This document shows positions 5,915 through 53,189 of a stretch of 64,000 nt of DNA, one piece after another (position 1 is the stretch's first letter; each line of letters begins with the position of its first letter). Source of the stretch: Atractiella rhizophila (Eukaryota); NCBI GenBank assembly GCA_021432655.1, contig MU271306.1, forward strand, positions 1-64,000, in the 5' to 3' direction. The position numbers were made by a program, and so were the translations under genes. The notes beneath the pieces were generated by a model. It saw nothing but the letters and a program-made list of their open reading frames with translations, had not been told where the DNA came from and did not search any database.

Positions 5915-6400
5915 CTCCTACCTCTTCCTCGCACCTCTTTAGTCCTCCTTTAAACCACTCCGCCACCTCTTTATTCGTCGCCTTCCCCTCCCACGTTCCA
6001 TTCCTCTCCTTCCATCCTCTCCTCCTCCTTCTCCTTCTCCCCAACAACCTCCCCTCACCTCTTATCACTCTACCCTCTTCCTCCCCTCCTCAACCACTCC
6101 CTCTCAAACTCGACCGGAAACAATCCAGACCCAAATCGTATCTCTCATCCTCTGGAATCACGTAGAAAATCCGCGTAGGCGAGCTGGATGATTGTTCTTC
6201 TGAGTTTCTGGTTGAAGCGGGAGGGAAGAGTGTGAGGTCGAAGAGGGATGGAGGTGCCCAGGCCTTCGACGTTGGTGGAGTTAACGAGAGCCGCTTTGAT
6301 GTGGATGTGGAGGTAGATTTGGACGCTTCAAATTGGGAAAGAACAGTCGAAGAGCGTACCGGAAGTTTTCCTCACCTCTCAACCTTCCGTCGACGACCTC
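5915..6400 (-). pseudogene. Degenerate duplicate of the 3' half of the TLS1/C9orf78-like gene
   Basis: Minus strand gives SKSTSTSTSK, FYVIPEDERYDLGLD and WEGKATNKEVAEWF, against SKSTSASTSK, FYVPPEDERHDLDLD and WEGKATDKEVAERF at 10112-10600. It has frameshifts and no 5' exons. Confidence 0.8.
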
Positions 6401-7252
6401 AACGCTTCTTCTCATCCTTCTCCTCCTCCTCTTCAAACTGGGGTCGCCTTCCAAACCGCACACCGGGAAAGGATATTGGAATACGATCTTCCGTGAAGAG
6501 TAACGCGAGCACTGATTTTTTGGTTCCGTCCCTGGGAGCGCGTCTCTGCCATTTCAAGCAAAAAATTCATTTGTACGATGGTAAATATTTATGGCGGCGC
6601 TTCTATCCTTTTACTCCGGCCAGCGCTTTCTTTAATCATCATGGTGGATCATGTCCTGATACAGCCCGCCCAGTTAAGACACAAAAAATGCTAGCGTTGG
6701 GCTTTTACAATTCAAGGTCGACTTCCCCTCGTAACTGTGTGTAAAGCTGGTATACGTCCTTCTAGTTCAGTCTGCTTCTAATGATTGGCGTGTTCTAATC
6801 AAGCGATAGACAGTCGGATTCCATGAGAGAAGTTCTTTCATGTCATCCGCCTTGGTTGATTGGTGCCCTGGTGCTCTGTTTGCTTCCTGATGACTATTGG
6901 GTTCCCTGAAGGTGATGCTGTACTATTGAGCAAACCATTGCTATGAGTGAGCTATTTATCGTTAAGCATTGCGTTGATACAATAGTGCACAAATAACTCG
7001 TGGTATAATATACAAATATCAAGTGGAAGATAGCGAAGATACAACAATCAATTCATTCCGGAATACCAATCCATGTTGTACAAACGGGAATATCGTGTCT
7101 GGGGTGAACAACGGAAACTTAGTCAGGCACAAGAATATGTTCAGATACATAAACAATTGGCGACCTGTGTCGCCTTTTTGGCATTTTTGGTGTAACTGCA
7201 GATAACTTTTAGGTTATGTACCGAGTGTTGAAGTGATATGAGAGACTCACCT

Positions 7253-9444
7253 TCATGTGAAATCTCTTCTAGAGTGTCTATCAACAATCGCATCACGGTA
7301 TTCCTCCCCACTCTCCCAAACTTTGTAAAATTTGTCCCCATCTCGCACGCCACATTCTCTCATCGTCCTCCTGGCAGCTTCAATCTCCTTCACGGACCAC
7401 TGTGCAAAGAATAAGCAAACACGTAAAAGGGATCCTCTCATTGTTCTCTCGACTTCAGATCCAGCATCATCCTCTGTTTCATCCCGCTGCTCGATTCTCG
7501 TTGTTGGGCGATGCGCAAAAAACCAGTAGATAAAGTCCGGGAAACCCAAGAATTCTACCTCACAGTACGCGATGTCTATTTCTTTTATCGCTTTTGCATT
7601 TTGAAGAGTGCGGAAAAGCTGGCGTGGAACAAGATTTGAGGTCTCTCCACCACCATCGATGAGGAGGGAGGTGAGGTGCGTGAGGCGGGATAAGTCGACA
7701 GGATTGGGTAGAACGACAGCAGACTTGTCAGGAGAGCAGGATGCGATCCCTAGCGCGAGATGTTCCAGAAGAGGAGGGAGATACGAACCCGAGATAGTCC
7801 AAGGGAGTTGAGGCAGATTGCAGAGAGTCAGTCGTTTGAGGCTATGTGGTAGGTAGAGGCATTCAAGAGTTGGGTACGTTTGAAGTGCTAGGGATACCAA
7901 GCCAGGATATAATTGAAAGCCTGTACGAACGCGCCGAGGGCGAGGAAGCAGAGTCCTCCACTTTGTATGCGGTGAGGTGTCTGAGGGTCCCACGCATCCG
8001 ATGTATAAAGTTCTCGACTTCGTCCTTCTTCCACTTCCTCCGACCTTCAGATCCAAAGGTTACCTCCACCAACCCTCTCAAACCTGAAATCGCATGCAGC
8101 ACAGTCTTCGCCTCCTCACTATCCCAACACGCGTCCAGGTACACTCGCGTCACATGCGGAGATGCGTCAATGACCGTTTTGACCATTTCGACTTTGACGA
8201 TTTCGACTTTGACCATTTCGACATTACTACGCCCTTGAAGCCACAGTGTGTTCCATAGACGTCCAGCACCAGGGTTTAATTGGACGCGATCATATTTCTC
8301 CTTGACAGATCCAGGTTCGTTCCCATAAGGGGCTGCAGCTTCTCTCCAGAGCTTGCACACGTCAGACAGAGTGGAACCTGTGTAGTGTCCGAGGAGAGAA
8401 TCTCCGACTTCGAGGAAAGCGAAGATGATAGACAAGAGCTCGATGGGTATGTGAGAGAAAGGGCTTCGAATAACCCCCCGAACGGGAGAGGCCGAGAGTT
8501 GTATGATGGCCGCTGCGTTTGAACGAGGGGACGGAAGTGATGATGATTCGTCATCCCTGAAAGGGACGAAACGTTGTTCAGTATCAGAGTACAGAGCAAT
8601 GGGGACGAAGATGGCTTCAGAGCGATATTCTGGCAGGAGACGAAATGTCCAAGTGGTGAGGTGTTCCACTTCCCTGGGCAGATCAGCTGAGTTGGCGGAT
8701 GAACCGACAGATAGATTGATAGATGAATCAGTACGTGAATTGATAGTTGGGTATGGGTTGAAAGGAGAGTCGAAAATTGAACCAAGCGACGAGTCGGAAA
8801 ATGAATGGGCAGTTGAATCAACAACTGGAGGAGGGCTAGCCGCCCCCCCTAAGCTGATGACAAGACTCGCTACACATACACGGTCCCCGTCGACTGTTTC
8901 TTCGAGATGCTGATGCTCAAGTGAGACGTGGGATAATTTCGAGGAGATCCAAGCGGGATCCTCATCCGTGAACCGAGATGGGACATCAAATTTGATCCAG
9001 AGCTCCCAAGTTGACGAAGGCAGGCCAGAGAGGAAAGAGCGAAGAATGGATAGGTAGAACAAACGGGTACGTTTCGCTGGCGTGATGAAATGGACAAGTG
9101 CCGTCGACTCTGATTGAGAATCATGGCGCGCGCCAGGTGCTTGTGGCCCAATTTCTTCACGAGAATCATGGTTTGAGATTTTTATTGGCTGCTCGATGTC
9201 TTCCCGAGAATGCTGGCTTGTGCAACGTGCTTGCTGCCCAAATTCTTCTCGAGAATGGGAATCATGGTGTAAGGAAACTGTTGACGGTTGGATGTCTTCC
9301 CGAGAATTCTGGTACGGGGTCTTCGTTTGCCGCTCGATCATTTCCTGAGAAGAGACGTCAAAGTATAGTCCATAATTTAGGTCAGATGAGAGGGGGAAAT
9401 ACCTGCGCTGTCGGGAAATCGTCAGATGATGAAGCTTGAACCAT
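7253..9444 (-). pseudogene. F-box/LRR-like family copy 2 with one frameshift (about 7925)
   Basis: Exon 1 at 9444-9403 (MVQASSSDDFPTAQ), intron 9402-9345, then a long exon. The motifs HIPIELLSIIF..LSDVCKLWR, AGRLW and RKWKKDEVENF continue after a frame change at about 7925 into LPPLLEHL, DLSRLTHLTSL, FPDFIYWFF and LFFAQW (ORF 7253-8056). Confidence 0.75.
8178..8222. repeat. 15-bp tandem repeat x3 inside copy 2 (VEMVK-VEIVK-VEMVK)
   Basis: tttgaccatttcgac-tttgacgatttcgac-tttgaccatttcgac. Paralogous copies carry this peptide once. Confidence 0.9.
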
Positions 9445-12862: not shown

Positions 12863-15800
12863 ATGCCCCCTAAGTATCGGGGAGAAGGGAATAGAGGCGG
12901 AACACGGAGAGGTAGAGGGAGAGGAAGGGATCAAAGAGAGAGACAAGAAAGTTTTGGGGAAGGTGGATCGAGGAGGTACGAGCAGGTATACCGACAGGAA
13001 AGACGGAGAGATTTTGGTTCAGGTGAGCCCTTTTCGTCCTGATTTGGTAGAGGGATTGCGTCTTATGTCTTGATACCTTTTGGCTGTATTTCCTGATCTG
13101 TCGATATTGTTTTTGTGTGATCCAATGTTTCAAAGTGTTTACTCCGCCTATTTAACATTAAATTGCGCCGATGTGGAAGGTTAAGCGAGCAAAAGCTGTC
13201 GCACTGACCGTTATCTGCTACATTTATCACTTGTGTGCAGCGAGAATGGCAGCAGGAATTATGATTATGTTGTTAACCTAAAAAGGCTAGGTTATCTCCC
13301 CGTTTCATTCTTGTGCCGGAGCAAAGTCTTGTTAGGCTAACTCCATGACGAGTAGGTTAGCAACATTAGCAACATTATTAAAAGACTTTTGCTTGACATA
13401 CCTCCTGTCAGATGTCGACTTCACCCCTTTCAAAGCATTGTGAAAATTGAATTTGGACCACAGCTAACCGTTTATTCAATTCTGAATTTGGCCACAGTTA
13501 AGAGTTTATTCAATTCTGAATTTCAGAGGCAGAAATTTTGCTTTTCCTACGGAAGTGCTGTTTTTGTGCACCTTTGCACATTGCATGGGATAACCGCCGT
13601 AACTGAATGTCCATTTGTTCTCACCGCTTCCCTGTGTCAATAATTTGTGGATAAACTGATTCATGAAAATAGCTACTCAGAGTCGTTCAGCATCATTGCC
13701 TACAGGCGTCAGTCACCCTCATAGAGAATCAGTGCTTAATCAGCGTCATGCGGCCTCATTTTCCCATGCCACTACTTTTGGGCAATCGCCTTATGATCAG
13801 TCACATGACCTGTCGGGAGAGCAATTTCCAAACCAAGTCCCACAGCCATTCGGATTGACACCGCTTTGGGATTATCCACCACATCCACTTGGACATCCTG
13901 CTTCTATCCTTCAACCCAATTATTGGACTACAATACCTCTCCCGCCTTCTCTCCCACCACCCGCTTGGACCCATCCTTTTACGCCAATATCATTCCAGTA
14001 TACGGAGCCTCAGCAAATTCAGGACGCCGAGTACACGCCATTTGAACCCTTGGCATTTCCACAACACCGATCTGTTGGCATGCACGGAGAACCTCATCTT
14101 CAAAAAGAGCCTCGGGCACCAGTGTCTCCAGTAGGCCCCAGAGTCACTCGCGAGCATCAGGCGACCGGGAAACCATCAATGTCATCGCTCCCGTCCGCAG
14201 CTTCGACATCCAAAACATCTATGCCAGTAGTTTTCAAAAGAGCTAGATCACCCAGCCCCGTTATCAAAGGACGCAGACTGAGCACCTTGACTGCCTCGCC
14301 CCGTGGGCGGGATGAGAAAGCCAACAATCTACGGTCGAAAGCTGCAGAGCTCAATGCTTCTGCACCACAACCTCAAAGGGCAAAAGATTCATTGAATGCA
14401 ACTATTTCTCCATTCGGTGAAGACTCCCCATCCACAATTCCCGTAGCTACCCCTTTGACGAGCGAGAAACCTCACTCTCCCAGCGTTCCGATCTTCTCTC
14501 GGAATACGGTGGCTTCTCTTGGATCTGATTATGGCGTCGTATACTCTGGGAGTAGGAAGCGCAGTTATGAAGAGATTGAGGATGAAGAGGGAGAAGACCT
14601 GAAGATCACAGCTGTTTTAGAGGTAGAAGGACTTGATAGCCCTTCTTCATCAGAACAGGAAAGCGAACATTTGAATTCAGACAAAGGTAATGGTGTTGCA
14701 TTAGGTGCTGGAGAAGAAAACAGTCTTTGGAAGCACATCATCGACCATTCCGGGAGATCAATACTTGTGGGAACGGATAACTCAAATCATTTGATAAAGA
14801 ATCAACAACCAGGTGCGAGCATGTATGCCCGTTGGAATTTCACGTTGTTGAAACTGAGTTGGTAGGAGAAGTCGATTATTCGCCTATCAAGGCGCCGCCA
14901 GATGGAGCAAATCCTGGAAGAAACCCCTTTGCTCGAGTTACGGATTCTTCAAATAGTGCTACCAAAAGTAAAAGAGGTCCTGTTACTCTGAATGTCGAAG
15001 AACTACTCGAGTCTGCTTTGGATCGAAAACGAGGCGAAGGCATCCCAACTCCTTATGCAGCCAGGTTGAGGCACTCGAAAAATCCCGATGAAGCCTCAAA
15101 ACCAGCCAATGTGGAGCAGACCGTTTCTCCCGCGCCAGGAAGACAGACCGAGTCCAGCGAGCAACAAAAACCATTGGCACCGTTCAGCATTGAAGCGCAA
15201 CAGTCAGTAGATGATAGAGACAAGGAAACGGAATTGGGTGTCCCGACTAGCGTAGATGAGGTTAATACAGAACGCTTGACCGAGAAGAGTTTTGATATGG
15301 ATCTTGGAGGAGATTTCGAAGATGCTACCTCAACAGGTGGACCACCCGAAATCCCAACTGCACAACCGGCTGATACCCATCTGTCCAATGCCGTGACAGC
15401 ATCACAGTTTCCTGATGTACCTGTTGCAACTGTTCGACTGCTACCACGAGACTCTTTGTCATCCCAACAATCAAAGTCAGAGTCAGAGCTATCACCCTCC
15501 TCGTTAGCTGAGATCGTTGTCGACAATACCGCCCCTCCAGACTCCCAACCACAAGCTCCTTCAACACGAGCTGCATCACCTCTTTCTCCCCCAATTAGCG
15601 AAACTTCAACCTCTCCACCAGAGTCTCCAGTACATATGCCTGCTGTGGGTCAAAATGTCGGCAAAATTGACGCTCCCAGGGAAGCTGATAGTGATTCGAG
15701 CGACGGCGACAGAAGCTTAACTCAGCCTCTACAGGATGCGGCGCAGAACACTCAGGATGGTTTTGCGACGAAACGTGGTCGGGGTCGTGGCAGAGGTCGA

Positions 15801-18312
15801 GGTCGTGTGGGTAGACCTAGGGGTTCACGAGGTGGGCGAACTATTACGCCAGATCCAGTAGAGATCAGCGATCAATCGTCTACTGGACCGAAGACCAGGA
15901 GGCTGGGAAAGACAGCTGCAGAATCTCGTAAGTATCATTAACATTGTCTCTAGGAAAACTAACTCGGTGAGAAAGGGCGTTTTTTCGCAAATACTGGAGC
16001 ATTGAACCATACTCCGAGGCACCCGCCTGTGACGACTCCATTAGCTCAACGCATATATCGCTCATTCCCAGACATCAAGGAAGTCACTCCATTGAGAACT
16101 AGTATAACCCTCCAGGAAGAAGAGCAACCTCCGGTTCCACCTCCTGATAACGACGCTGCCCGAAATCCAGAGGCAGTCCACAGCCCTACCAGACGCACAA
16201 TCACCTTCAAGGTTCCTTCGAAGTCAACGGACGAGATGAAGCGGGCGGTAACTTTCAACAGGGTAACCGATCCTGACTGGTCCCCGCGCGCGTTGCGAAA
16301 GTCCCAAACACCACCTCCAGCAATTAGTAAGCTGAAAGTTCAAAATGAACCTTGTAGTAGATTCTCAGACGCTGCCCCTTGTGTCAATTGCTACGAACTC
16401 CTTGGACCGCCTTGCAGATTTCACGGTATGCGGTGGTTTTCTTACGATCTCAGTGGCCGTGTGAAGGATGGACCGTTTTTTATGGGGACCACGGTACCTG
16501 ATCTCAACGTATCTTTTCTATTCGACTTTTTAGGGGATCCGACCCGTCAACAAGTAATGGAGGTATTCCTCGCAACCAGCGACAGCATTATGCTCAACCT
16601 CGACTCCGAAAAGGCAGCGATTTTTGACCCAGGCGCTGTTCGATGTCAAAAAGACAGCAGTGTTGTTACTACATGCGACGCTTGTCTATCTGGTACTTTT
16701 GCCTCATTCTGGCTCTGTCGACGATGCGGAAGGCGGCTTTGCTCAGCGTGTCTCAACGATTTGGATCACCGCGACTCTGCTGTTGTGCCACATCCTCAGA
16801 TCTGCATTCGGAGTTCTCATCACCAGCGCGAACATTTCGTACCATGTGTTTTTTTTGACATATGCGAAATTGATAACATGCGAGCCGCGATCCAGTCAAT
16901 TAGATTACAGGTCGCAAGTCATCCTTCTGCAACAACGTCAGCCGACACCGCTACTTTCGTCAATCAACTAGTTCCAAGAACATTTCCTGTTGAGAGGCTC
17001 TCGGATGAAACGTTTCGACAGTTTTGGGTAAAAAGGTGCCCCTTTGTAGTGGCCAACTTACCAATTACATCCAACCTATGGACGCCTGCCACTCTCCGCA
17101 CAAGCTTCGCCGCTTGGGCTGTGGCTAATGAACAGCTACTGGATGCGAATCGTCGTGACGCTGTTGCAGCTGTGCTGGAGTTGCTTCAAAAGGGTATTAA
17201 GCTTTACAAGAAACCGTTGGTCCGTTCTGCTCGTTTTCATGGTGCTCAACTAACCCACAGGTAGGTTCGCTCCGCCAGTTTGCCGCTCGAATTGTTTGCG
17301 GACCAACTCAAGGACTACAACACTTTCCTTCCTCTGCCGGCTATAACGCATTCGAAAGGACCCTCAAATGTCGCTGCATACCTCCCTAGCGACAATCTTC
17401 CCCCTGACAAGTCAGTTGTTCTTGATGTCCACATAGCAGAAACATCTCATCAATGCTTTCTGATAGTGGTCCTAAGCTGGACATTGCCTTTGAATCCCAG
17501 CCTGAACGGATTGCTGGGGTAATCGGACTGCACACAGTATGTTTTGTTTCTTTTTGATCTGAGTTCTCACTTTCGGAGCAGAATTTTGTGGACTGTCTGA
17601 GTATCATGGCATGGACTAGTGATGGTGGGAAAGCGGTGTGGGACGTGTTTCCAGTAGAGACTGCCTCTCGCGTTCGTTTCTTACCTTTGGATATCGTAAC
17701 ACTATTGACAATCCCTTTAGCTTCGTAGGTACATTCTTAGTGACCTCGCTAGCAAATTTGGTTGCTCCTATGAAGAAGCACAGAGGAGGTTTGGAGACCC
17801 GATTCACAGCTCTGAAGTCTACCTTAACGATGAGATGTTATCAAAGCTAAAGGAGGAAGGCATCGTCGCCTGGCGAATAGAACAAGCGCTGGGAGAAGGT
17901 GTCTTTCTCCCCGCTTCATCTATATACCAGGTACGGTCCTCGTCATTTAGCCTTGAATTTAGCTTAAGTTTTTCCATAGGTCTGCCCGCTAGCTAATTGC
18001 GTCCTCATTCGGACGCCATTCCTGAGTCCTCAGAGTATTACCACTTCGCTCCGCACGTTAGATAGCCTAAGGGAACTCAATCACAAGAAGAAATGGTGGC
18101 ACAGAGACGCTGTTCGCTTTCGATGGATGGTAGGTTTTTCTGACATTGGTTCTATCTTGACACCAAGGCAATAATAGCTTTACTTCGCGTGGGCTTGCGC
18201 ACGGTATATCCTCGACCACTGGCGACCACCTAATGAGGAGAGCATAGTCTTGCGTGAAGGCAATCAATTGATCAGTGACAGTTACTTGTCAGCTGTCTTA
18301 CTTCCATCCTGA
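12863..18312 (+). CDS. KDM3/JMJD1-type JmjC-domain chromatin protein with Cys-rich zinc finger; predicted catalytically inactive
   Basis: RG-rich exon 1 (12863-13022) joins in phase to 13673. A long disordered region has an AT-hook-like RGRGRVGRPRG. Then CDACLSGTFASFWLCRRCGRRLCSAC, FRQFW..PFVV, PLPAITHSKGPSNVAAYLP, GPKLDIAF, AVWDVF, DPIHSSEVYL, QALGEGVFLPA, FLSPQ and MLYFAW. Stop TGA at 18310-18312. Confidence 0.85.
13447..13523. repeat. Short imperfect tandem repeat (about 34-bp period) within the long first intron
   Basis: gtttattcaattctgaattt occurs twice about 34 bp apart, and tgaatttgg(a)ccacag(c/t)taa also occurs twice. Confidence 0.7.
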
Positions 18313-18502: not shown

Positions 18503-21500
18503 CTAAATGAAACGTAAAGAATCTATGCCCAAACTTTTCCGTACTTGAATGATGGCGACCAGTTCTTTGATAGCTTCTTCTAACACTACAACGTTATCGA
18601 GGATGGTGGAGAGGGTGACATTGGGGCTTGAAGAAGACACAGATGCGTGTCCCACACTAGAATCATAAGGCGTTGATCGCCCACCAGAGGATAAGGCAGA
18701 CATATCCTTGATTGGAGCACCTTTTCGTTTAGTTGGAGTGTCCAGGCCACGTCCATCTTCCGAAGGATCTGGAGAGTTTGACGAGATAGGCGAAAGTCTG
18801 CCACTGCTTCCGCCGAATGTGCGTTTCTTACTTGATTTCGGTGTTGCCACCACTGGTGGCTTGATAGAAACAGACCCAGTTTCACGGTAGTGTACTACGA
18901 ATGGACTCGCTGGTCCGGCTGATGCCTGGGTTGATGACTGATGGGTCGAAGGGAGGAGAGACGAAATCGATGGTCTCCGAGCAAGAGGCTCAGGTGTCAG
19001 AAAACTGAGGACACTTGACGCTTTCACAGGAGTGGTTGAGACCGACAATTTCTGTTGAGGTTGGGTAGGCAGAACTAAGTGGTCACTTGGATCAAGAGCG
19101 TCTGCTAAATTTTCCGCAAACATGAGCCCTTGTCGTCGTTCGTTAAGGTATCGATCGAACATGGGAATTGTCTGCCGAAAATGTTCGACTTGACGTGTTA
19201 AATCTCGGAGCATGGAGAAGATGGCCCCTTTGCGTGTCCAACTGTCTGTCCCATCATGATTGTCCGCAAACAGCAGCCTGGAACGAATTTTCTCATTGTC
19301 TTGATGACTACCAGCACCGACAGTGGCGATAAGAGAGTCTTGTCTGGACAAATCTGCAATTTCAAAATCAACAGATCTGTCATCGCCGTCGTCTGATGCT
19401 CGGACGATTGGTTTGCCTGGCGACTCAGCCAGTAGTTGTGCGAGTGAAGTCTTCTCCTTTTCGACGATTTCGGGCAGCAACCAGCCAGACAGTGACCGAT
19501 ATGGGCACAGTGCTAGGCTCGCAATGACTTTGGTAAGAGCAAGATTGAGTTCGGGAGAATGTGCAAAGAATTGCGCAAGACTTTCGAGGATTCGTTCTAC
19601 GATGGGCGAGTAAATGTCGAGCTTGTGCCGAACCATGATTTCGTCGTCACCCTCTTCTGGTACAGAAAATCTGGGGAAAAGCGGTGTTGACCCTTTTCTC
19701 ATAAGTAACAAACTTCTACGCTTCTGCATCCCCGGTCGCATGGTAGGGAGGGGTGATTTCACTTTAAGCTTTGTGCTTGACGAACTGATACCTCGTCTGA
19801 AACTTGGCTCGCTTGCAATCGCTCGCTCTGCGTCCTTGATATAGTTATCAAAACCGGTACTGGAAATTTGGCTTTCGTTAGAATCAAGAGAAGATACAAA
19901 AGAGAGCAGCTCGGTTAGCTCTGACACATGACGCGTGATAGTTGGAATTGGCGTCAGGGCCGATGTAGACGGTGCAGGCGGAGCAGCAAACGGATCCGTT
20001 CTAGAAGGAGTCTGTAACGGGAAAGAATGTCGGGAAGGCATCGGGGTATGTTGAAGTTCATCCTCATCATCAGTAGGATAACGAAACTCTTCCTCCTCGC
20101 TCTCATCATCAGCTGCAGGATAAACAAAGACTTCCGACCCCGAATCGGACGCCTGGTCTTCCTCTTCTTCAATGCCTTTCCGAAACGGAAATGCTGTGGC
20201 GTTGGGATCAGGAATGATATCGAGTAAATCCAGACTCTCGCGATCATGGAGTGTAAGCAGTGTGCAGAGAAGCCTAAGGGCAGAAACCGCGGTCGGTTGG
20301 TTTTTGCAGTAGATGTTGGCCATCAGGAGATCGCGAAGAGAAAATCGCCCAATAGATGTGAAGTAGCCGCCGTCTAGTCCGGGACTCATCATAGGGGCAG
20401 GGGCAGCGGCCTCAACAAGGATCAACGCGGAGCTTTTCCGTCGATTCTTTTTGACTTCCTCGGGAGTCTTGCCTTCGTCCCTAAGAATTTTTGGTGGCGA
20501 CATCCCAGCGAGAAGCAGCGTTTCCGTTCGCTTTCGTTCGGACCTTTGAGGTGAAGGAGTGAGATCCTGTGGCTTTCTCTTCTCCTCCTCTTCCCCCATC
20601 AAGAAGTTTAAAACAGTTTCTGTCAACTTGCCCCCATCCTCGAGCACCGCTAGCATTGCATCGAGATAGCTGAGAACTGCAACAGCTGAGCCATCGCTTT
20701 CAGAACATTCGAGGATGGCGGTATACAGGACGCTTTCAAGAAAGATAGATCGGATGGCATCTAATATGCTAGTTGCGATCGCATTGCTGAGGAGGTGTGA
20801 TTCGGTGAAGGGTTCCTCGTCAAATGGATCGACGTCTTTGGCGGCTGTCGATGGACTCTTCCTCAAGATGTCTTGAGAGAATTCGATAAGTTTCAACCAG
20901 AGGTCCACCGCCTTTTTGACTTCAGGCCGAGACGATATTTCCACTCCAAGGCTCCTCATCTTGTCCTCTTCCTCCTCAGCCTTCAATCGAGCGTCTTCCC
21001 CTTCCTCTCCTCCCAAGCCACCAAGAACCATTGAAGCCCCGAAATCTACATTCCCAGACTCGTCTTCCACCTCACCCCCAACAGTTGCACTATCGTGAGC
21101 CCTGACAACTAACTTCTGGGGTAGGAGACCATAAAGAGCGCCGAGACCTGCTGCAAGCACATCTGAAAAATCAGATTGAAGAAAGAAAGAAGCAAGACTG
21201 AGTGCAGCCTCCTGAGAAGCCTCCGTAGCACGTTCGAAAAGGTCTGACGTCTTTTTCCTCTTCGAAGCATCCGGTGTGAGCGACGAAGATGCTCCGGTCA
21301 TCGCCAGTTCAATAAGGAAGAGCATTCCCGCCCGCGCGAAATCGCCAGTCTTTCCCTCTCGATGAAGGAATCGTAAGAGGTAAGAGAAGAGGAGGAACTC
21401 GTATTCTGGACCGCCTCCGTGTGGACTTCGTTTGGATGGACGTGTGATCGATGTCGATCCTGTAGCTGATGATCCATCCAGAGAGAAAGAGTCATTGGAA

Positions 21501-22935
21501 TCAGTAGGGCTATCCCTCCCAAACCTGTGGTCTGGCTTCCTCTTGTTGTCCCCCTTCTTCTCCGTCATGAAAATGACCAAAACTTCAGGAAGAGCCTTGA
21601 TCTTGCCACAGACACCACACATCAATTCCACAAGATCTTCCTCATATTCAGGATCTGCAGTCATCCAACCGCCTTCACCTCCTTTCTCCTCTCCGGTCCG
21701 GTCAGGAGTTACACATGCCCTGATGAGCCTGACAAGAGGCCGATGGACCTTGTCATGGACGAGAAAACGTTCGTCATCGACCTCGGAGACAGCACGAGCG
21801 AAGAATCGGACTGCAGCCGCTTTCGAACCTTTTGGACGGTCAGCGAGGCAGAGGCGGACGAGATTTGTGGGAATGGATTGTCGGAAGGTGTATTCGAGAC
21901 AGGGACCAAGGATGAGCGGCTCGCCGTGGAAAGAAGGATCGGGAGAGATGGGCACAGTCATCGACTCCGTAATGAGGATATTGATCAGAGTGGTAAGATT
22001 CGCTTCGAGGGAGACAACCATTGAAGGAACAGATGAAAGAGACTCGTTTTCCAAGATTGCCTGCAAGGTGCATCAGAGGGTTTGTCTTTTGTTGCAGGCA
22101 GGGAACGATAAAGACACCAGAAATATCGGCAGTTCTTCCCAGAAACATCAACCCATCTTATAAGGGCTGAGAGATGCAGCAGCGTCTTAGTGCGCACATA
22201 ACTAATGACAGGGATAAAAGTGCTGCGATGTTTTACGTCTCTGAATACCAAGGTATTTCCAGAAGAGCAACCAGCTTTAACAACGTAACTTAAGGCATAA
22301 ATGTCTGCCTTTTGCTATCGTTTCGCATTCCATGAAAGAAGCACAGTCCAATTGTACCTGAACATGCTTTAAGAACCAATATATTTCTCATGCACTTCGA
22401 ATGCTCGCACAAAAGAGCAGGTGTGTTGTAACTACGACCACTCCTCAAGCGTGACAACCAACTCAGACTGAAAGAAGAGATGATATCAACAGCTGAGGCA
22501 TCACAGTTCAACGTTCAATGTTGATGCAACATCCGTGCTGCAGCCATCTTGGTAACAGAGGAAGGCGGGCTCAATAGCATAGCGTTCTGCTGCAAGTCGG
22601 AGCTAGATCCGTTTTCACATCACCTCAGCTTCTTCAAACCATCTACGTGACCGTCTTCAAGGAGGAACCCTTCAACCAACGAGTGATGCCTAACTCTCCT
22701 CCCCAATGTCACATACTACATGCAACCCTTCCGATGCCAACGGGTAGCAGAAACGACGAACCTTACAGCTGTTCCATGCTTTCTCGAACCTCTCCAATCT
22801 CTCCTCTGGCCGAATCTCCTTCCCTGAATCCTTCTGTCCTTTCCTCACACCACCCGGACCACCTCCCCTAGACCGTGAAGACGATGCAGATTCGCCGAAT
22901 TGCAGGCGAGGAAATTGGGCGCGGAGCCAATCCAT
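18503..22935 (-). CDS. FHIP/FAM160 (RAI16-like) family protein
   Basis: Exon 1 (22935-22762, ..RLERFEKAWNSCK) joins in phase to a very long exon starting at 22060. Motifs GPCLEY, LLFSYLLRFLHREGKTGDFARAGMLFL, LAAGLGALYGLLP, FFAHSPELNLALTKVIASLALCP and LDNVVVLEEAIKELVAIIQVR are typical of FAM160/FHIP. Confidence 0.85.
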
Positions 22936-48385: not shown

Positions 48386-50112
48386 TTACTCTTCCGGGTC
48401 GTCTCGACACTGCCCCCAACAAATCCCTGCCCCTTTGGCGCTCGACGAACACGCCATCATCGTCCTCCTCGCAATCCAGATCTCCTCCTCAGCCCACTCT
48501 CCAAAAAACAAAAGAACACGTAAAATAGATCGGCTCCTCACTTTTCCCCCTTCAGACCTAGATCCATCTTCCATATCCGCATCGTTCTTCTTAGGTTTCT
48601 CAGCCCTTCGATCTCCAAAGAACCAATGGATGAAGTCTGGGAAATCGAAAGAGCTCACGAAGCAGTAGGAAATCTCTATCAATTCTATGGACTTAGCGTT
48701 TTTGAGAGTACTGAAGAACTCTCGCGAAACTAGGTTTGAAGTGTCCTTTCCACCATCGAGTATGAGCACAGTGAGATGTTGGAGGTGTGATAAGTCAAAC
48801 GGGGTGGGTAGGATGGAGGTAATTCCATCAGTCGAGAACGGCGCGAGCTCGATATGGAGGTATTCTAGAAGAGGTGGCAGAGGGAAAGCCGAGAGGGATG
48901 GAGGGAGGGGGCATAAATTGGAGAGTTTCAAGCGCAGGAGGGTGCGCGGGAGAGAGAGGATCGGTGGAGGCGGATAATTTTCGAGCGTGACCGAAGTGAA
49001 CCCCAGAGGTAAGTGGAGGCCATTTGACACGGAACGGGCAGAGGAGGAGGAAGAGAGCTCCTCGACTTCGTAAGCAGTGAGCCGTCGGAGCCTTCCACTC
49101 GTCCTCCAAGTAAAATCCTCTATCTCCTCCTTCCTCCACTTTCTCGAACCCTTATTGCCAAAGGTCACTTGCTCCAACTTCTTTAAGCTTTCGATTGCCC
49201 TCAAAACTATCCTCGCCTCCTGTTCATTCCAAAACGCATCCAGCCACACGTAAGTAACGTTCGGCGAGCCCGTGATGACCTCCTTCACCATCTCTACGCT
49301 GATATTTTGTTCAAACTCCAATCCATTCCATAGACGCCCAGCGTGAGGATACACCCTCAAACGAGCATGTTTCCCTTTCGCAGAAGAAGGTGGATTTGAA
49401 TGAGCAACCGAAACTGCCTCCCAGAGCCGGCAGACTGCATGGAGCCTGGAAGATGCGTGAGAAGAGAAGGGGAAATCTCTATCTTCGTCAAATTTCAAGA
49501 AATCGAAGATGATGGAGAGGAGCTCGACGGGTAAGCATGCGATGGAGCAAACCTCTGACAGTGGGGGAAGCGAAAGTTGGATAATGGTTGCAGAGTTCTC
49601 ACGGAGGGATGAGAGGCATGCCGATTCGTCGTCGCTGATGGGGATAAAGCGCTCTTCTTTCCTGGAATGTAAGGCGATGGGGCGGAAGATAGCCTGAGAG
49701 CGAAGCAGAGGAAATGTGCATGTAAAGGGTTCCGCAAAAGTGAAGGTCGATCTGCCCCAGAACCAGAGGAGGTATTCCGGATCAACAGGCTCGGGTTTTT
49801 CGATCCCAAAGTTTACCGCGACTGTTTTGAAGTTGAAGGTAACGCGAAGATTCGCTACCCCGTCCTTTTCCAGTGCATTTTCGAGACCTTCAAGTGAGAT
49901 ATGGGACAATTTCGAGGATACTCGTGCAGGGGCATCTTCCTTGAGTCCAAGTGGGAGCGCAAACGTGATGCGTAGGGTGTGAATGGAGGGGGTAGGCTAG
50001 ATAGAAAAGAGGGAAGAATTGAGAGGTGAAGCGAAGCGATATTTTCCGACGGAGTTATAAAATTGACTATTGCGGTCGAGTCTCGCTCGTAAATAGCTTG
50101 CTGGCCAGTCAT
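48386..50112 (-). CDS. F-box/LRR-like family copy 6; single frameshift in a G5 run (49988-49992), either pseudogene or assembly error
   Basis: ORF 49855-50112 (DSTAIVNFITP..LHLSILPSFLSSLP) shifts into the frame of ORF 48386-49909, which has all family motifs (IACLPVELLSIIFDF..VCRLW, AGRLW, GSRKWRKEE, FPDFIHWFFG, LLFFGEW). Confidence 0.75.
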
Positions 50113-50198
50113 TTCCTCGTCAGAGATGTAGACTAACTAGATGAAAGAAAAGAACAGGAATGCGAAAGTTAAAGTGGATGACAAAGTCGGCAAAAATT

Positions 50199-50270
50199 CT
50201 CCCGGACGGGGAATCGAACCCCGATCTCCAGAGTGAGAGTCTGACGTGTTAACCGTTTCACTATCCGGGA
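50199..50270 (-). tRNA. tRNA-Glu (anticodon CTC), intronless
   Basis: TCCCGGA-TA-GTGAAACGGTTAACAC-G-TCAGA-CTCTCAC-TCTGG-AGAT-CGGGG-TTCGATT-CCCCG-TCCGGGA-G. 72 nt, perfect acceptor stem, B-box GGTTCGATTCC, followed by a T5 Pol III terminator (50196-50192). Confidence 0.95.
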
Positions 50271-50756
50271 TAATCTGGACACTGTTGTCCGGATATACAC
50301 TCAGATCTTACGACCCATGATGCAAACCTGGGGGAACGCTCTTTGCCTTGATTGATCCCGAAAAGCAAGTGTGGCTCGACGAGACGAAGCGCCTTCCCTG
50401 CCTTGGGCTGGAGGCGTTGACGGTAGTTTTAGAGGAAGAGGCTGCCTTGCTTCTGCGCAGGTCGAGTTTTCAGATCGCGTCTCTCTCGTGGGTCCGAGTC
50501 TCCTCCAAATACGCCGCACGACCTACGCAGCGGAACTCACGAACGTTCCCACCTCATCTCCTCTGCTATAAACCTTCTGTTACTCCTGGAACGCCGCCTA
50601 GAAGAGTGCCTGAAGCGAAAGTCAAGTTATCTGCATTGTTGCAGCCAGAATCCGAATTCTAGTCCAGCGTTCGTACCTCACCTGTTGACATCTTTACCCT
50701 GCTGCTTCTTACCTAGAAACACGAAAGCTGATATGAATGTGTGATGGAGCAGCGCG

Positions 50757-53189
50757 ATGAACAGAACAACACCAGCGAAGGGAACGATACAAGTGAGTGG
50801 GGTCGATCCACCTCCATATTCCTATCCACCACAGCTTCCACCAACTCCTCAATCTCCCACACATCCACAGGACTATCCATGGCCAGAATACGTCTACTCT
50901 GCCCACCAGCTCCCTTCTCCCTCCCTGCAGCAACAATCGCCAATGCAAGTAGAGAGAGGGAGCATGCTCGACTCCATCTTTCAACGCATCGCCAGAATCA
51001 AACCACAACTCAACTCCACACCTTCTCCCGGCTCACCTCCATCGCCACAGTCACCCCGTTCACCACTTTCAACTCGCTCGCCGCATGCTGATCATGCAGT
51101 TTCGTATCATTCTCATCCACAGTCCCTTCCTCTCACAGACTCAAATTCCGGAGGTGCTGGTGTCAGGAACGAAAGACCTGCGTGGTGGCCGTCTCGACAG
51201 GCGCAGGAACGGGAACTTGAAATAGGAAGCGACCACCATCCTACTCAGCGCGGTGGCTATGGCACATTGGCGAATATTCCATTTCGACGTACTCTCCCGC
51301 AAGATCCTATAGAGGAGGAGGTTGCACCGAATCCATCATACCGTGCGGGAAGCGGAAACCGTCATGCACGCGCTCCTGAGAGAGATGAGGAGAGCGAGGA
51401 GTCGAGAAAGTGGAGGTGGGAGGAAACAGAATCAAGAAACGGCGAGTTCCAGAGAAGGCAAGAAGAGAGAAACAGGCATCATGGAATAACGAAACGGAAC
51501 GGTGTGGGGATGGATCTTAGAACACATTTTGAGCCTGAAGACACGTCAGGGGATTTCGATCTCGCCCTCCGATACGCGATGGAAGGCATGTCATACTCTC
51601 CTCCTCCCTCTCCCACGCCACATACTGCGTCGAATCGCTCAGCTGGTGACTTCGACATGGAAGGGGAGGAAGAACAAATGGAAGCGATGAGGAGATTCGA
51701 GAGCGATCGAGAGATGGCTTTGAGGATGAGTATGGAGGATGAGGAGATGACTACCACTCTATTGGGGCTAAAGGATGAGGGATTCGAGGTGCCTGACTTT
51801 GTTGAACCTCCTCCCGTTCCTCCAAAGGAAAGGAAAGTTAGTTCGGAGTTTGAGATGGCCATGCCAGGTGGATGGCAAGATGAACGCGGAAAGGGTAAAG
51901 GGAAAGGTAAACAGAGAGCTGAACAGAGCGAGGAGGAATATCCGGCGCTGTGGACGAGAACCGCGCTGCGTCCTGACAAAGAGCTGGAAGGGAAGGTGAG
52001 AGTATTCTCTCCTTTCTTTCTTTCTTGACAATCTAACGATGACCTCGAAGCCGAAAACGACTTGTCAAATCTGCTTCGACCCTTTCATCTCCGTTCCGCA
52101 ACCCTACGAACAGATGTTTGATTTCATCCCTTTTGCATCTCGACTTACCATCCACTCTCAGCCCCACCTCCACCGAGCTGGGACCTCGAGAGGAACCCAG
52201 GAAGGCAAGACCGCTATGGTGGGCTCGATCCTTCCCACCTGCAACGTTGGTCCCCTTTCCCTATCACAGGAAGGATGTACTGACGAAGTAGACCGCTGGT
52301 CACTTCAGCATTCATTCTGTATCTCTTGTCTAACGGAATACATCGATTCCAAACTAGCAGATCCTAACCCTTTCCCAATAAGATGCCCATTCCCAAAGGT
52401 CATACTTTTTCTTCCGATAAATAATATTAATTGTGTGGCAATGATAGTGCGAAACACGAATTGACGATAGTATGGCGGAGAAGGTACTGGGGAGAGAGAA
52501 CATGGATGTATGGCACTTTAAAGCATTAGTAGAGAGCACACCAAAGGTATTTCTTCCCTCTTTATCATCCAATATACATGGCTGACGGAAATTCATTTAG
52601 ATTTACTGTCCTTTCAAATCGTGCTCTCACCCAGTCACCATAGTTGAGGGCACAACAAGGGCCACCTGCCCCAATTGCAGGAAGGAAGTGTGCTGGGCTT
52701 GTAGAACCGAATGGCACGACGGCTACACGTGCGCGCAGTTCAAGGTGTGCTTATTCCAGCTTCTCCATCGCTCCTGTACTCACGATCTACATGGAATGGT
52801 GACGAAAGAATCTACCGCCTCGAGAGACGAAAGACGATGATGAGACGTTCAGAAGGTTTGTGGCGATGAAGAAGTGGCAGAAGTGCCCACACTGTGGGGT
52901 ACGCCTTCCTTTCCTCTCTTTCTCATCTCCTGCTTGCTGATGGGACATGAACAGAATGTGGTGGAGAAGAGTAGTGGTTGCGATCATATGTCTTGTCGAG
53001 TACGTATTTCTCACATACTTCTTGCCGTTATTCGTTAAGAGTTGGAGCTGATTTCTTCCAAAAGTGCAAGAAGGAATGGTGCTACCGCGTAAGCACTTTT
53101 CGCTCTATGCCCACATTCGCTAACTCATGAGGGAACAACAGTGCGGCGGAGATTACAGAAATGGATGTTTGACGAGAGGGTGCAGGTAG
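50757..53189 (+). CDS. RBR (RING-IBR-RING) E3 ubiquitin ligase with a long disordered N-terminus
   Basis: RING1 CQICFD..HSFCISCLTEYI..IRCP; IBR YCPFKSC..CPNCRKEVCWACRTEWHDGYTC; RING2 KCPHCG-NVVEKSSGCDHMSCR-CKKEWCYR-CG with the catalytic GCDHM motif. Confidence 0.92.

Follow-up and report, generated by a model that had tools for sequence, protein, structure and literature searches.

A KDM3-type gene of Atractiella rhizophila with replaced cofactor residues: a predicted pseudoenzyme beside an intact KDM3

What becomes of a histone demethylase gene in which most of the residues with which its family binds its cofactors are gone, and might its product still serve chromatin? A locus in the first 64,000 nucleotides of contig MU271306.1 of Atractiella rhizophila (assembly GCA_021432655.1, forward strand; the whole stretch is hereafter the window) raises this question. 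An earlier note, made from the letters of the window, had marked 17467..18060 as a KDM3-type JmjC domain with substituted catalytic ligands and had read it as an Epe1-like pseudo-demethylase. We call the gene pseudo-KDM3. On balance, we favor the view that it is an expressed and maintained KDM3/JHDM2 pseudoenzyme, predicted to act as a non-catalytic chromatin adaptor alongside an active KDM3.

Gene structure and cofactor residues

The gene comprises the following features.

12863..18312, plus strand: whole pseudo-KDM3 gene, 10 exons, 1468 amino acids
12863-13022, 13673-14812, 14866-15927, 15976-17219, 17265-17410, plus strand: exons 1-5, joints in run X7
17467-17536, 17582-17671, 17721-17930, 17980-18129, 18178-18312, plus strand: exons 6-10 (the last with the stop), joints in run X7
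12905..12931, plus strand: N-terminal Arg-Gly (RG) repeat, residues 15-23, read from the sequence; putatively nucleic-acid-binding
13673..16340, plus strand: low-complexity N-terminal region, residues ~54-910, judged disordered from composition
15774..15824, plus strand: RG repeat, then a Gly-Arg-Pro (GRP, AT-hook-like) motif, residues 737-753, read from the sequence
16353..16823, plus strand: KDM3-type Cys-rich region, first Cys cluster C914, C923, C926, C934
within 16353..16823, plus strand: cross-brace finger, C1021-C1046, C1064, H1070
16995..18210, plus strand: KDM3-type JmjC region, residues 1128-1435, over seven exons
17208..17276, plus strand: strand that reads KLKDWPP in the family, here KKPL/VRSA across intron 17220-17264, in a register that is not exact
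17522..17524, ATC, plus strand: Ile1270 for the 2-oxoglutarate-binding Thr, from alignment and the hidden Markov model (HMM) of intact homologues
17531..17533, CAC, plus strand: His1273, the sole retained cofactor residue, from the same alignment and HMM
17537-17581, plus strand: intron of 45 nt (GT..AG) between the His-Thr and Asn codons, skipped in X7 and X1
17582..17584, AAT, plus strand: Asn1275 for the Fe-binding Asp, from splice joint, alignment and second haplotype
17600, AGT, plus strand: Ser1281 for the invariant Asn of DAVN, from alignment
17925..17927, TAC, plus strand: Tyr1373 for the distal Fe-binding His, from joints, KDM3B alignment and second haplotype
17931-17979, plus strand: intron of 49 nt after the Tyr-Gln codons, skipped in X7 and X2
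18004..18006, CTC, plus strand: Leu1383 for the 2-oxoglutarate-binding Lys, from alignment and second haplotype

After splicing, the ten-exon model leaves 1468 codons without a stop, and all nine introns have GT..AG ends; the start ATG at 12863 is placed from the frame, with the listed piece of the X7 contig beginning at 12872. Splice joints were checked in contigs from four of the seven listed runs (X1, X2, X3 and X7). A single transcript-like contig from X7 joins across all nine introns, while six of the nine are skipped in X1, four of the nine in X2 (a root metatranscriptome) and one in X3. That X1 is RNA is a guess, and contigs give no expression levels; the joined introns support expression of the gene. 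The two introns named in the earlier note, 17537-17581 and 17931-17979, were both recovered, each joined in X7 and in one further run. A third intron (17672-17720) falls within the span given there, and the gene has ten exons, the first starting at 12863. At intron 17537-17581, X2 offers a 9-letter loose end that matches the following exon. The pieces 17721-17928 of X7 and X2 contain no mismatching letter, so the Tyr codon is present in both contigs. The spliced frame reads both ligand motifs as the note had given them and does not restore H-x-D...H, and the joints rule out mis-splicing as the origin of the substitutions.

The public annotation cuts this gene into KAH8923991.1 (624 amino acids) and KAH8923992.1 (partial, 134 amino acids). 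The former, a stored Atractiella rhizophila protein identical to part of pseudo-KDM3, ends before the JmjC core, and neither piece includes the first ligand motif.

The KDM3 subfamily has five cofactor residues, H, D, H, T and K (PMC9029850), and the Fe ligands of KDM3B are H1560, D1562 and H1689 (PMC5933860). Four of the five are replaced in pseudo-KDM3 (T>I, D>N, distal H>Y and K>L), exactly the changes first claimed. The register was set with an HMM built from 25 fungal homologues that are intact, and a direct alignment to human KDM3B placed Tyr1373 on the His of PAGAPH. It is supported by the intact paralogue described below, which aligned to KDM3B over both motifs (E 3e-48). The 51-Mb assembly contains several near-identical gene pairs, which we read as two haplotypes; pseudo-KDM3 lies on contig C127, and its counterpart on C584 has the same codons at 6/6 ligand-motif sites, excluding a haplotype-specific lesion.

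To place these changes among homologues, we used an alignment of 116 database proteins and three gene models, in which 72 rows cover a motif and 63, 60 of them from the database, have residues in all six columns (nine were left out for gaps). H-D/E-H is retained by 53 of those 60, so the loss in pseudo-KDM3 is not a matter of chance. Single His substitutions inactivate KDM3A and KDM3B (PMC3623819), and H1120Y, a His-to-Tyr change at the first ligand, is an inactive KDM3A mutant (PMC13149330). Pseudo-KDM3 has neither the Fe(II) triad of an active demethylase (its residues are H1273, N1275 and Y1373) nor the Thr/Lys anchors (I1270 and L1383). Productive binding of Fe(II) and 2-oxoglutarate should be impossible, and the protein is very probably no demethylase.

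The codon for Asn1275 is the first of its exon and directly follows intron 17537-17581; in the intact paralogue, the corresponding intron is found 13 nt further downstream. Because the Asn codon opens an exon beside a shifted intron, the Asp-to-Asn change may stem from intron sliding.

The remainder of the protein is recognizably KDM3. A C-terminal JmjC region, a C2HC4-type finger upstream of it and its placement in trees make it a KDM3/JHDM2 member by descent, and the family assignment of the earlier note was confirmed by the HMM (E 2.9e-52), by Pfam JmjC (a single exon scores 27.1 bits, where the cut-off is 24) and by sequence matches in the PDB, which go to KDM3B (the best, E 5.8e-05) and JMJD1C. 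The long open reading frame and the zinc finger are intact, as had also been stated: measured against 39 intact rows, all 15 near-invariant finger positions are retained vs 36 of 62 in the JmjC region, a count lower by one when the intron is used to set the register of the KDWPP strand. The JmjC positions that persist are mostly Gly, Pro, Trp and core residues; among those lost are, besides the cofactor residues, the KDWPP motif, the PKMY Tyr and the DFVS Asp. The AT-hook/RGG-like motifs of the earlier note do exist, as the RG repeats and the GRP motif, and the nucleic-acid binding ascribed to them is conjectural. The intact paralogue as annotated has no RG/GRP motif of that kind, and GRP motifs occur in two of the three Sporidiobolales pseudo-proteins scanned (P0107 and P0023).

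Paralogues and repeated loss of ligands

A search for an active paralogue, which the earlier note had suggested, yielded one KDM3 with all residues intact, T-H-D-N-H-K (C157/C349; P0069, KAH8922964.1), predicted to be the active enzyme. An intron with GC..AG ends follows directly on its distal His-Gln codons (G000:C157, L025 7931-7990). Two further paralogues lack the ligands.

G000:C209 (L027), minus strand: ligand-less paralogue, gene model
G000:C110 (L028), about 6300-8300: ligand-less paralogue, gene model

At the positions T, H, D, N, H and K, C209 reads F, Q, D, D, K and H, and C110 reads S, R, D, N, K and N. In both models the splice sites are canonical and the frame stays open, and both carry Lys at the distal His position; the finger of C110 scores 10/15 as its first Cys cluster sits in an exon outside the model. 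No second-haplotype copies of C209 or C110 turned up in our searches. The three dead paralogues share a Y>D change in PKMY and an intron missing from P0069. Pseudo-KDM3 and the intact paralogue have three intron positions exactly in common, and probably a fourth, which may simply be old; intron 17931-17979 is identical in position and phase in the two.

We built trees after removing the six trait columns and with no non-KDM3 outgroup. In all three, the row nearest to pseudo-KDM3 was the intact paralogue. The 28-row tree placed the four Atractiella genes together (support 90/92) and the three dead ones within them (95/87), and the 18-row tree joined pseudo-KDM3 to the intact paralogue (93/95). 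The Microbotryomycetes also have dead KDM3s. Other degenerate KDM3s were among the database matches to pseudo-KDM3, and a search with one of them, P0107, in which 22 of 7998 candidates scored, recovered a single plant protein and 21 proteins of Sporidiobolales, the latter 44-62% identical to the query; among the 21, the distal His is replaced in all (Tyr in 19, Phe in 2), the Lys in all and the first His in 17. Phe also occupies the distal position in Microbotryum and one more Microbotryomycete, and Rhodosporidiobolus nylandii carries both a dead and an intact KDM3. The Microbotryomycetes proteins group together (100/99) without pseudo-KDM3, beside intact R. nylandii and Rhodotorula copies.

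A joint origin of pseudo-KDM3 with this clade, or orthology to it, was rejected by the approximately unbiased (AU) test (p 0.0015, log-likelihood 18.6 lower), for which the constrained Microbotryomycetes group had been fixed before any tree was viewed. This agrees with the independent origin proposed in the earlier note and, together with the separate groupings, implies at least two independent losses in Pucciniomycotina. The exclusion of pseudo-KDM3 from the Microbotryomycetes clade is surer than its exact place, given a branch of 2.95-4.7 changes per column.

Distal His-to-Tyr/Phe changes recur across several unrelated KDM3 lineages, and Tyr is one transition away (CAY>TAY). Separate ligand changes were seen in Entrophospora (P0010, D to N), Apophysomyces (P0068, all lost, distal Phe) and the grass Eleusine (P0139, distal Tyr). 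The dead-clade proteins P0129, P0131 and P0135-P0138 of Rhodotorula (1736-1966 amino acids) also bear PF12222/PF25156; several are named 'proteophosphoglycan ppg4' and are probably fused gene models.

Maintenance and possible function

Is the dead gene maintained? In neither haplotype is the frame broken by a stop or an indel. The ratio of non-synonymous to synonymous allelic differences per site (pN/pS) is 0.35 (21.5 non-synonymous, 19.5 synonymous; binomial p 0.0005-0.0015), and differences occur at 18 of 2819 0-fold sites vs 14 of 769 4-fold sites (Fisher p 0.004). A pN/pS below 1 speaks against neutral evolution, which the earlier note had named, together with lack of expression, as a possible refutation; for the folded region the polymorphism is uninformative. 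At ~27% identity to its nearest homologues the protein still keeps every near-invariant finger position, and this long-term pattern is a stronger sign of maintenance than the allele data. We take the gene to be real and expressed, and probably functional.

The finger is the best-kept part, and KDM3A requires its zinc finger for activity, the finger also affecting substrate choice (PMC3623819; PMC13632499). AlphaFold2 models were confident (pLDDT, the model's own confidence score, 82.8 for the Cys-rich exon and 89.3 for the finger alone). A fold search with the finger model (16632-16910) matched ZZ-type domains of RSC, Ada2, Nbr1 and BIG at Z 5.6-6.0, with root-mean-square deviations of 1.9-2.8 over 48-55 residues for three of the top four rows, but zinc domains of other kinds score about as well. 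Matches to regions of KDM5B and KDM6B, presumably their zinc domains, reached Z 5.5 and 5.4, and U-box/RING domains at 4.2-5.4, every fold match having Z <8. Foldseek gave no match at E <0.001 for either model, the 293-residue VIA search returned mostly helical matches, and Pfam found neither RING nor zf-4CXXC_R1 in pseudo-KDM3. When the zinc-finger region was used to look for homologues 759-2165 amino acids long, 0 of 1992 candidates passed, which is weak evidence, and the ESM Atlas returned plant KDM3-like clusters with a recognition score below threshold, a lead only. ZZ domains that read H3 require two acidic residues caging H3 Ala1 (PMC6138639); by eye in the ZZ register, D1022 is kept and the second site, CGRRLC, has no acid. 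The KDM3 C2HC4 finger is predicted, from weak scores, to be a ZZ-like cross-brace resembling the KDM5/KDM6 zinc domains, a property that may be family-wide.

Retention of the finger suggests that docking on chromatin has been kept rather than chemistry. In the adaptor reading that we favor, the lineage's own active KDM3 would have duplicated to give pseudo-KDM3, which, with moderate confidence, would dock to chromatin through its zinc-finger module and its basic RG/AT-hook-like stretches. The JmjC barrel would be kept as a folded, protein-binding surface, and the protein would act as an adaptor or modulator within the H3K9-methylation pathway, next to the active KDM3, in either an anti-silencing or a repressive direction, much as Hairless and JMJ24 do, each within its lineage.

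Several observations weigh against this reading. We found no orthologue outside Atractiella rhizophila among 117 matches from 1.84 billion representatives (best non-self match at 32% identity). The branch leading to pseudo-KDM3 is very long, its grouping with P0069 was not starred, and a 54-row quick tree does not resolve the link. The selection signal sits in the low-complexity N-terminus, which holds the bulk of the allelic differences (in residues 1-900, 16.5 are non-synonymous and as many, 16.5, synonymous), with just four non-synonymous and two synonymous in residues 901-1440; the zinc-finger part taken by itself has a pN/pS of 0.89, pN is not significantly under intron divergence (p 0.30), and the intact paralogue is under tighter constraint (0.22 overall, 0.12 in JmjC). 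X7, whose library is not on record, might consist of data from the source organism itself, and only the basic motifs point to a nuclear location.

Some of these points would equally suit a duplicate under relaxed selection, still transcribed and decaying, for which the long branch, the lack of an orthologue elsewhere, the uninformative folded-region polymorphism and the presence of three such copies in one genome all speak. We consider decay unlikely: at such low identity, 15/15 finger positions, a 1468-codon frame and nine canonical introns are kept, and pN/pS is below 1. Of about the same low probability is a role in which the emptied JmjC pocket reads H3K9me, shielding the mark from the active KDM3 or competing with it. 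D1278, which is the Asp of DxxDAVN, is retained along with most core positions, and a Ser stands at the position matching T667 of KDM3A (PMC3623819), but KDWPP, the PKMY Tyr, the DAVN Asn and the DFVS Asp, each at least 95% conserved in 39 intact homologues, are replaced. These motifs may line the substrate site, although no structure of KDM3 with H3 is reported (PMC13632499), and the loss of invariant pocket-side motifs (KDWPP, the PKMY Tyr and the DFVS Asp) weakens the claim of H3K9me reading made in the earlier note. An oxygenase with His, Asn and Tyr as metal ligands could draw on His1273 and perhaps on modification, as phosphorylation stimulates the latent activity of PHF2 (PMC4743055); with the carboxylate ligand gone and both 2-oxoglutarate anchors, Thr and Lys, now hydrophobic, we regard this as the most improbable reading of all. 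Hardly more credible is a RING/U-box-like ubiquitin ligase finger with the JmjC region selecting the substrate, for which JMJ24 is a precedent (PMC4743055) and the U-box/RING fold matches an indication: ZZ and KDM5/KDM6 zinc domains score equally or higher, the same finger occurs in active KDM3s, and the RING of JMJ24 is called a plant-specific gain (PMC4743055).

A special case of the adaptor reading has a better, though still doubtful, standing: a boundary factor of the Epe1/DMM-1 type, recruited by HP1 to heterochromatin edges and stopping spread without catalysis. Epe1 is a KDM2/PHF-type JmjC protein and stood outside our alignment. Its distal Tyr, Y370, confirmed in PMC7192584 as the earlier note had it, recurs in pseudo-KDM3, and both Epe1 and DMM-1 are JmjC proteins that depend on HP1, act at boundaries and have no shown activity (PMC9023284). 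The genome also contains candidate partners: a Pre-SET+SET gene (E 3e-12), which we take to be Clr4-like by its motifs, and a gene on C17 (about 49600-52100; L039, L040) with adjacent chromo/chromoshadow matches that fall short of the Pfam thresholds (19 bits against 22.4, and 24.7 against 25.1), which on the same footing we take to be HP1-like. The 3' part of the C17 gene is tandemly repeated ~1.7 kb downstream. Weighing against a boundary role, the subfamily differs, and a distinct PHD+JmjC gene on C380, with intact His ligands read by eye, is the likelier KDM2/PHF-type (Epe1 group) member in this genome. The HP1 matches are sub-threshold, and pseudo-KDM3 has just loose PxVx[IV] matches and no canonical PxVxL HP1-binding motif. 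Epe1 moreover depends on its remaining ligands (PMC7192584), mostly missing here. A shared distal Tyr says little about mechanism because it is recurrent in unrelated KDM3s and one transition away, and the label Epe1-like is not supported beyond analogy: pseudo-KDM3 is a KDM3 that has lost four of five residues vs a single natural change in Epe1.

Likeness to known chromatin factors

How does pseudo-KDM3 compare with described proteins? With KDM3A/KDM3B (JHDM2/JMJD1) and their fungal orthologues, the intact paralogue included, it has in common a KDM3-type JmjC region at the C-terminus and, ahead of it, a Cys-rich finger; it differs from them in its replaced cofactor residues, KDWPP and PKMY and in a low-complexity RG/GRP N-terminus of ~900 residues. 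Nearer parallels than Epe1 come from within KDM3, in Hairless and JMJ24. Hairless is the fourth vertebrate KDM3 and a nuclear-receptor co-repressor, a role with no known counterpart in pseudo-KDM3; it lay outside our trees, and its origin is presumably separate. Hairless likewise has replaced catalytic residues and is generally taken as inactive (PMC3623819). Arabidopsis JMJ24 and JMJ28 are KDM3/JHDM2 proteins with an atypical JmjC beside active IBM1/JMJ25 (PMC4743055, PMC9029850) and bind COMPASS subunits (PMC9824250). JMJ24 acts through a RING E3 activity on CMT3 (PMC4743055), whereas pseudo-KDM3 has no RING match in Pfam. Schizosaccharomyces pombe Epe1, for which a non-enzymatic function is proposed, needs H297, Y307 and Y370 and binds Swi6 directly (PMC7192584). 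Neurospora DMM-1, compared by description only, is a JmjC and Cys-rich protein that limits heterochromatin spread, with no demethylase activity shown (PMC9023284); its JmjC domain lies at the N-terminus, linked to a zf-4CXXC_R1 that has diverged (10.1101/2023.01.30.526367). The Microbotryomycetes clade (with, for example, GAA5941971.1, KPV78548.1 and KDE08213.1) has the same architecture, a distal Tyr/Phe and no Lys, and differs in that most of its members have lost the first His, which the Atractiella pseudo-KDM3 retains.

Inactive JmjC chromatin factors are an established class, with JARID2 the textbook case (PMC11241480), and pseudo-KDM3s are known from Hairless and JMJ24. What appears to be new is that one occurs in a fungus, how many of the ligands it has lost, and that such genes arose more than once next to an intact copy; we found no description of a basidiomycete or fungal pseudo-KDM3 in a literature search that left most subscription journals and supplements outside its reach. 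Whether Epe1-type JmjC proteins act catalytically is still argued, partly as Epe1 keeps most of its ligands. In Atractiella most ligands have been removed naturally and an intact sister remains, so that catalytic and non-catalytic roles may be divided between genes; such a division would have arisen at least twice in Pucciniomycotina, one case being conserved over red yeasts, including a laboratory species. More tentatively, Pucciniomycotina might have repeatedly and independently split a single H3K9 demethylase into an active enzyme and dead partners (three in Atractiella and one Microbotryomycetes clade) that target or restrain KDM3 through the finger, as a dedicated non-catalytic arm of heterochromatin control. 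Were that so, no earlier pairing of a KDM3 enzyme with a pseudoenzyme would be known from fungi.

The histone H3 genes of this genome (G000:C195, C82, C215 and C45; L052-L056) fall into two types, told apart by their tails near K27, and each is broken by an intron within the first residues of the N-terminal tail. In the window, the convergent neighbor of pseudo-KDM3 is a RAI16-like (FHIP) gene (18503-22072, minus strand; E 5.8e-58), and the X7 contig continues over the intergenic gap into it.

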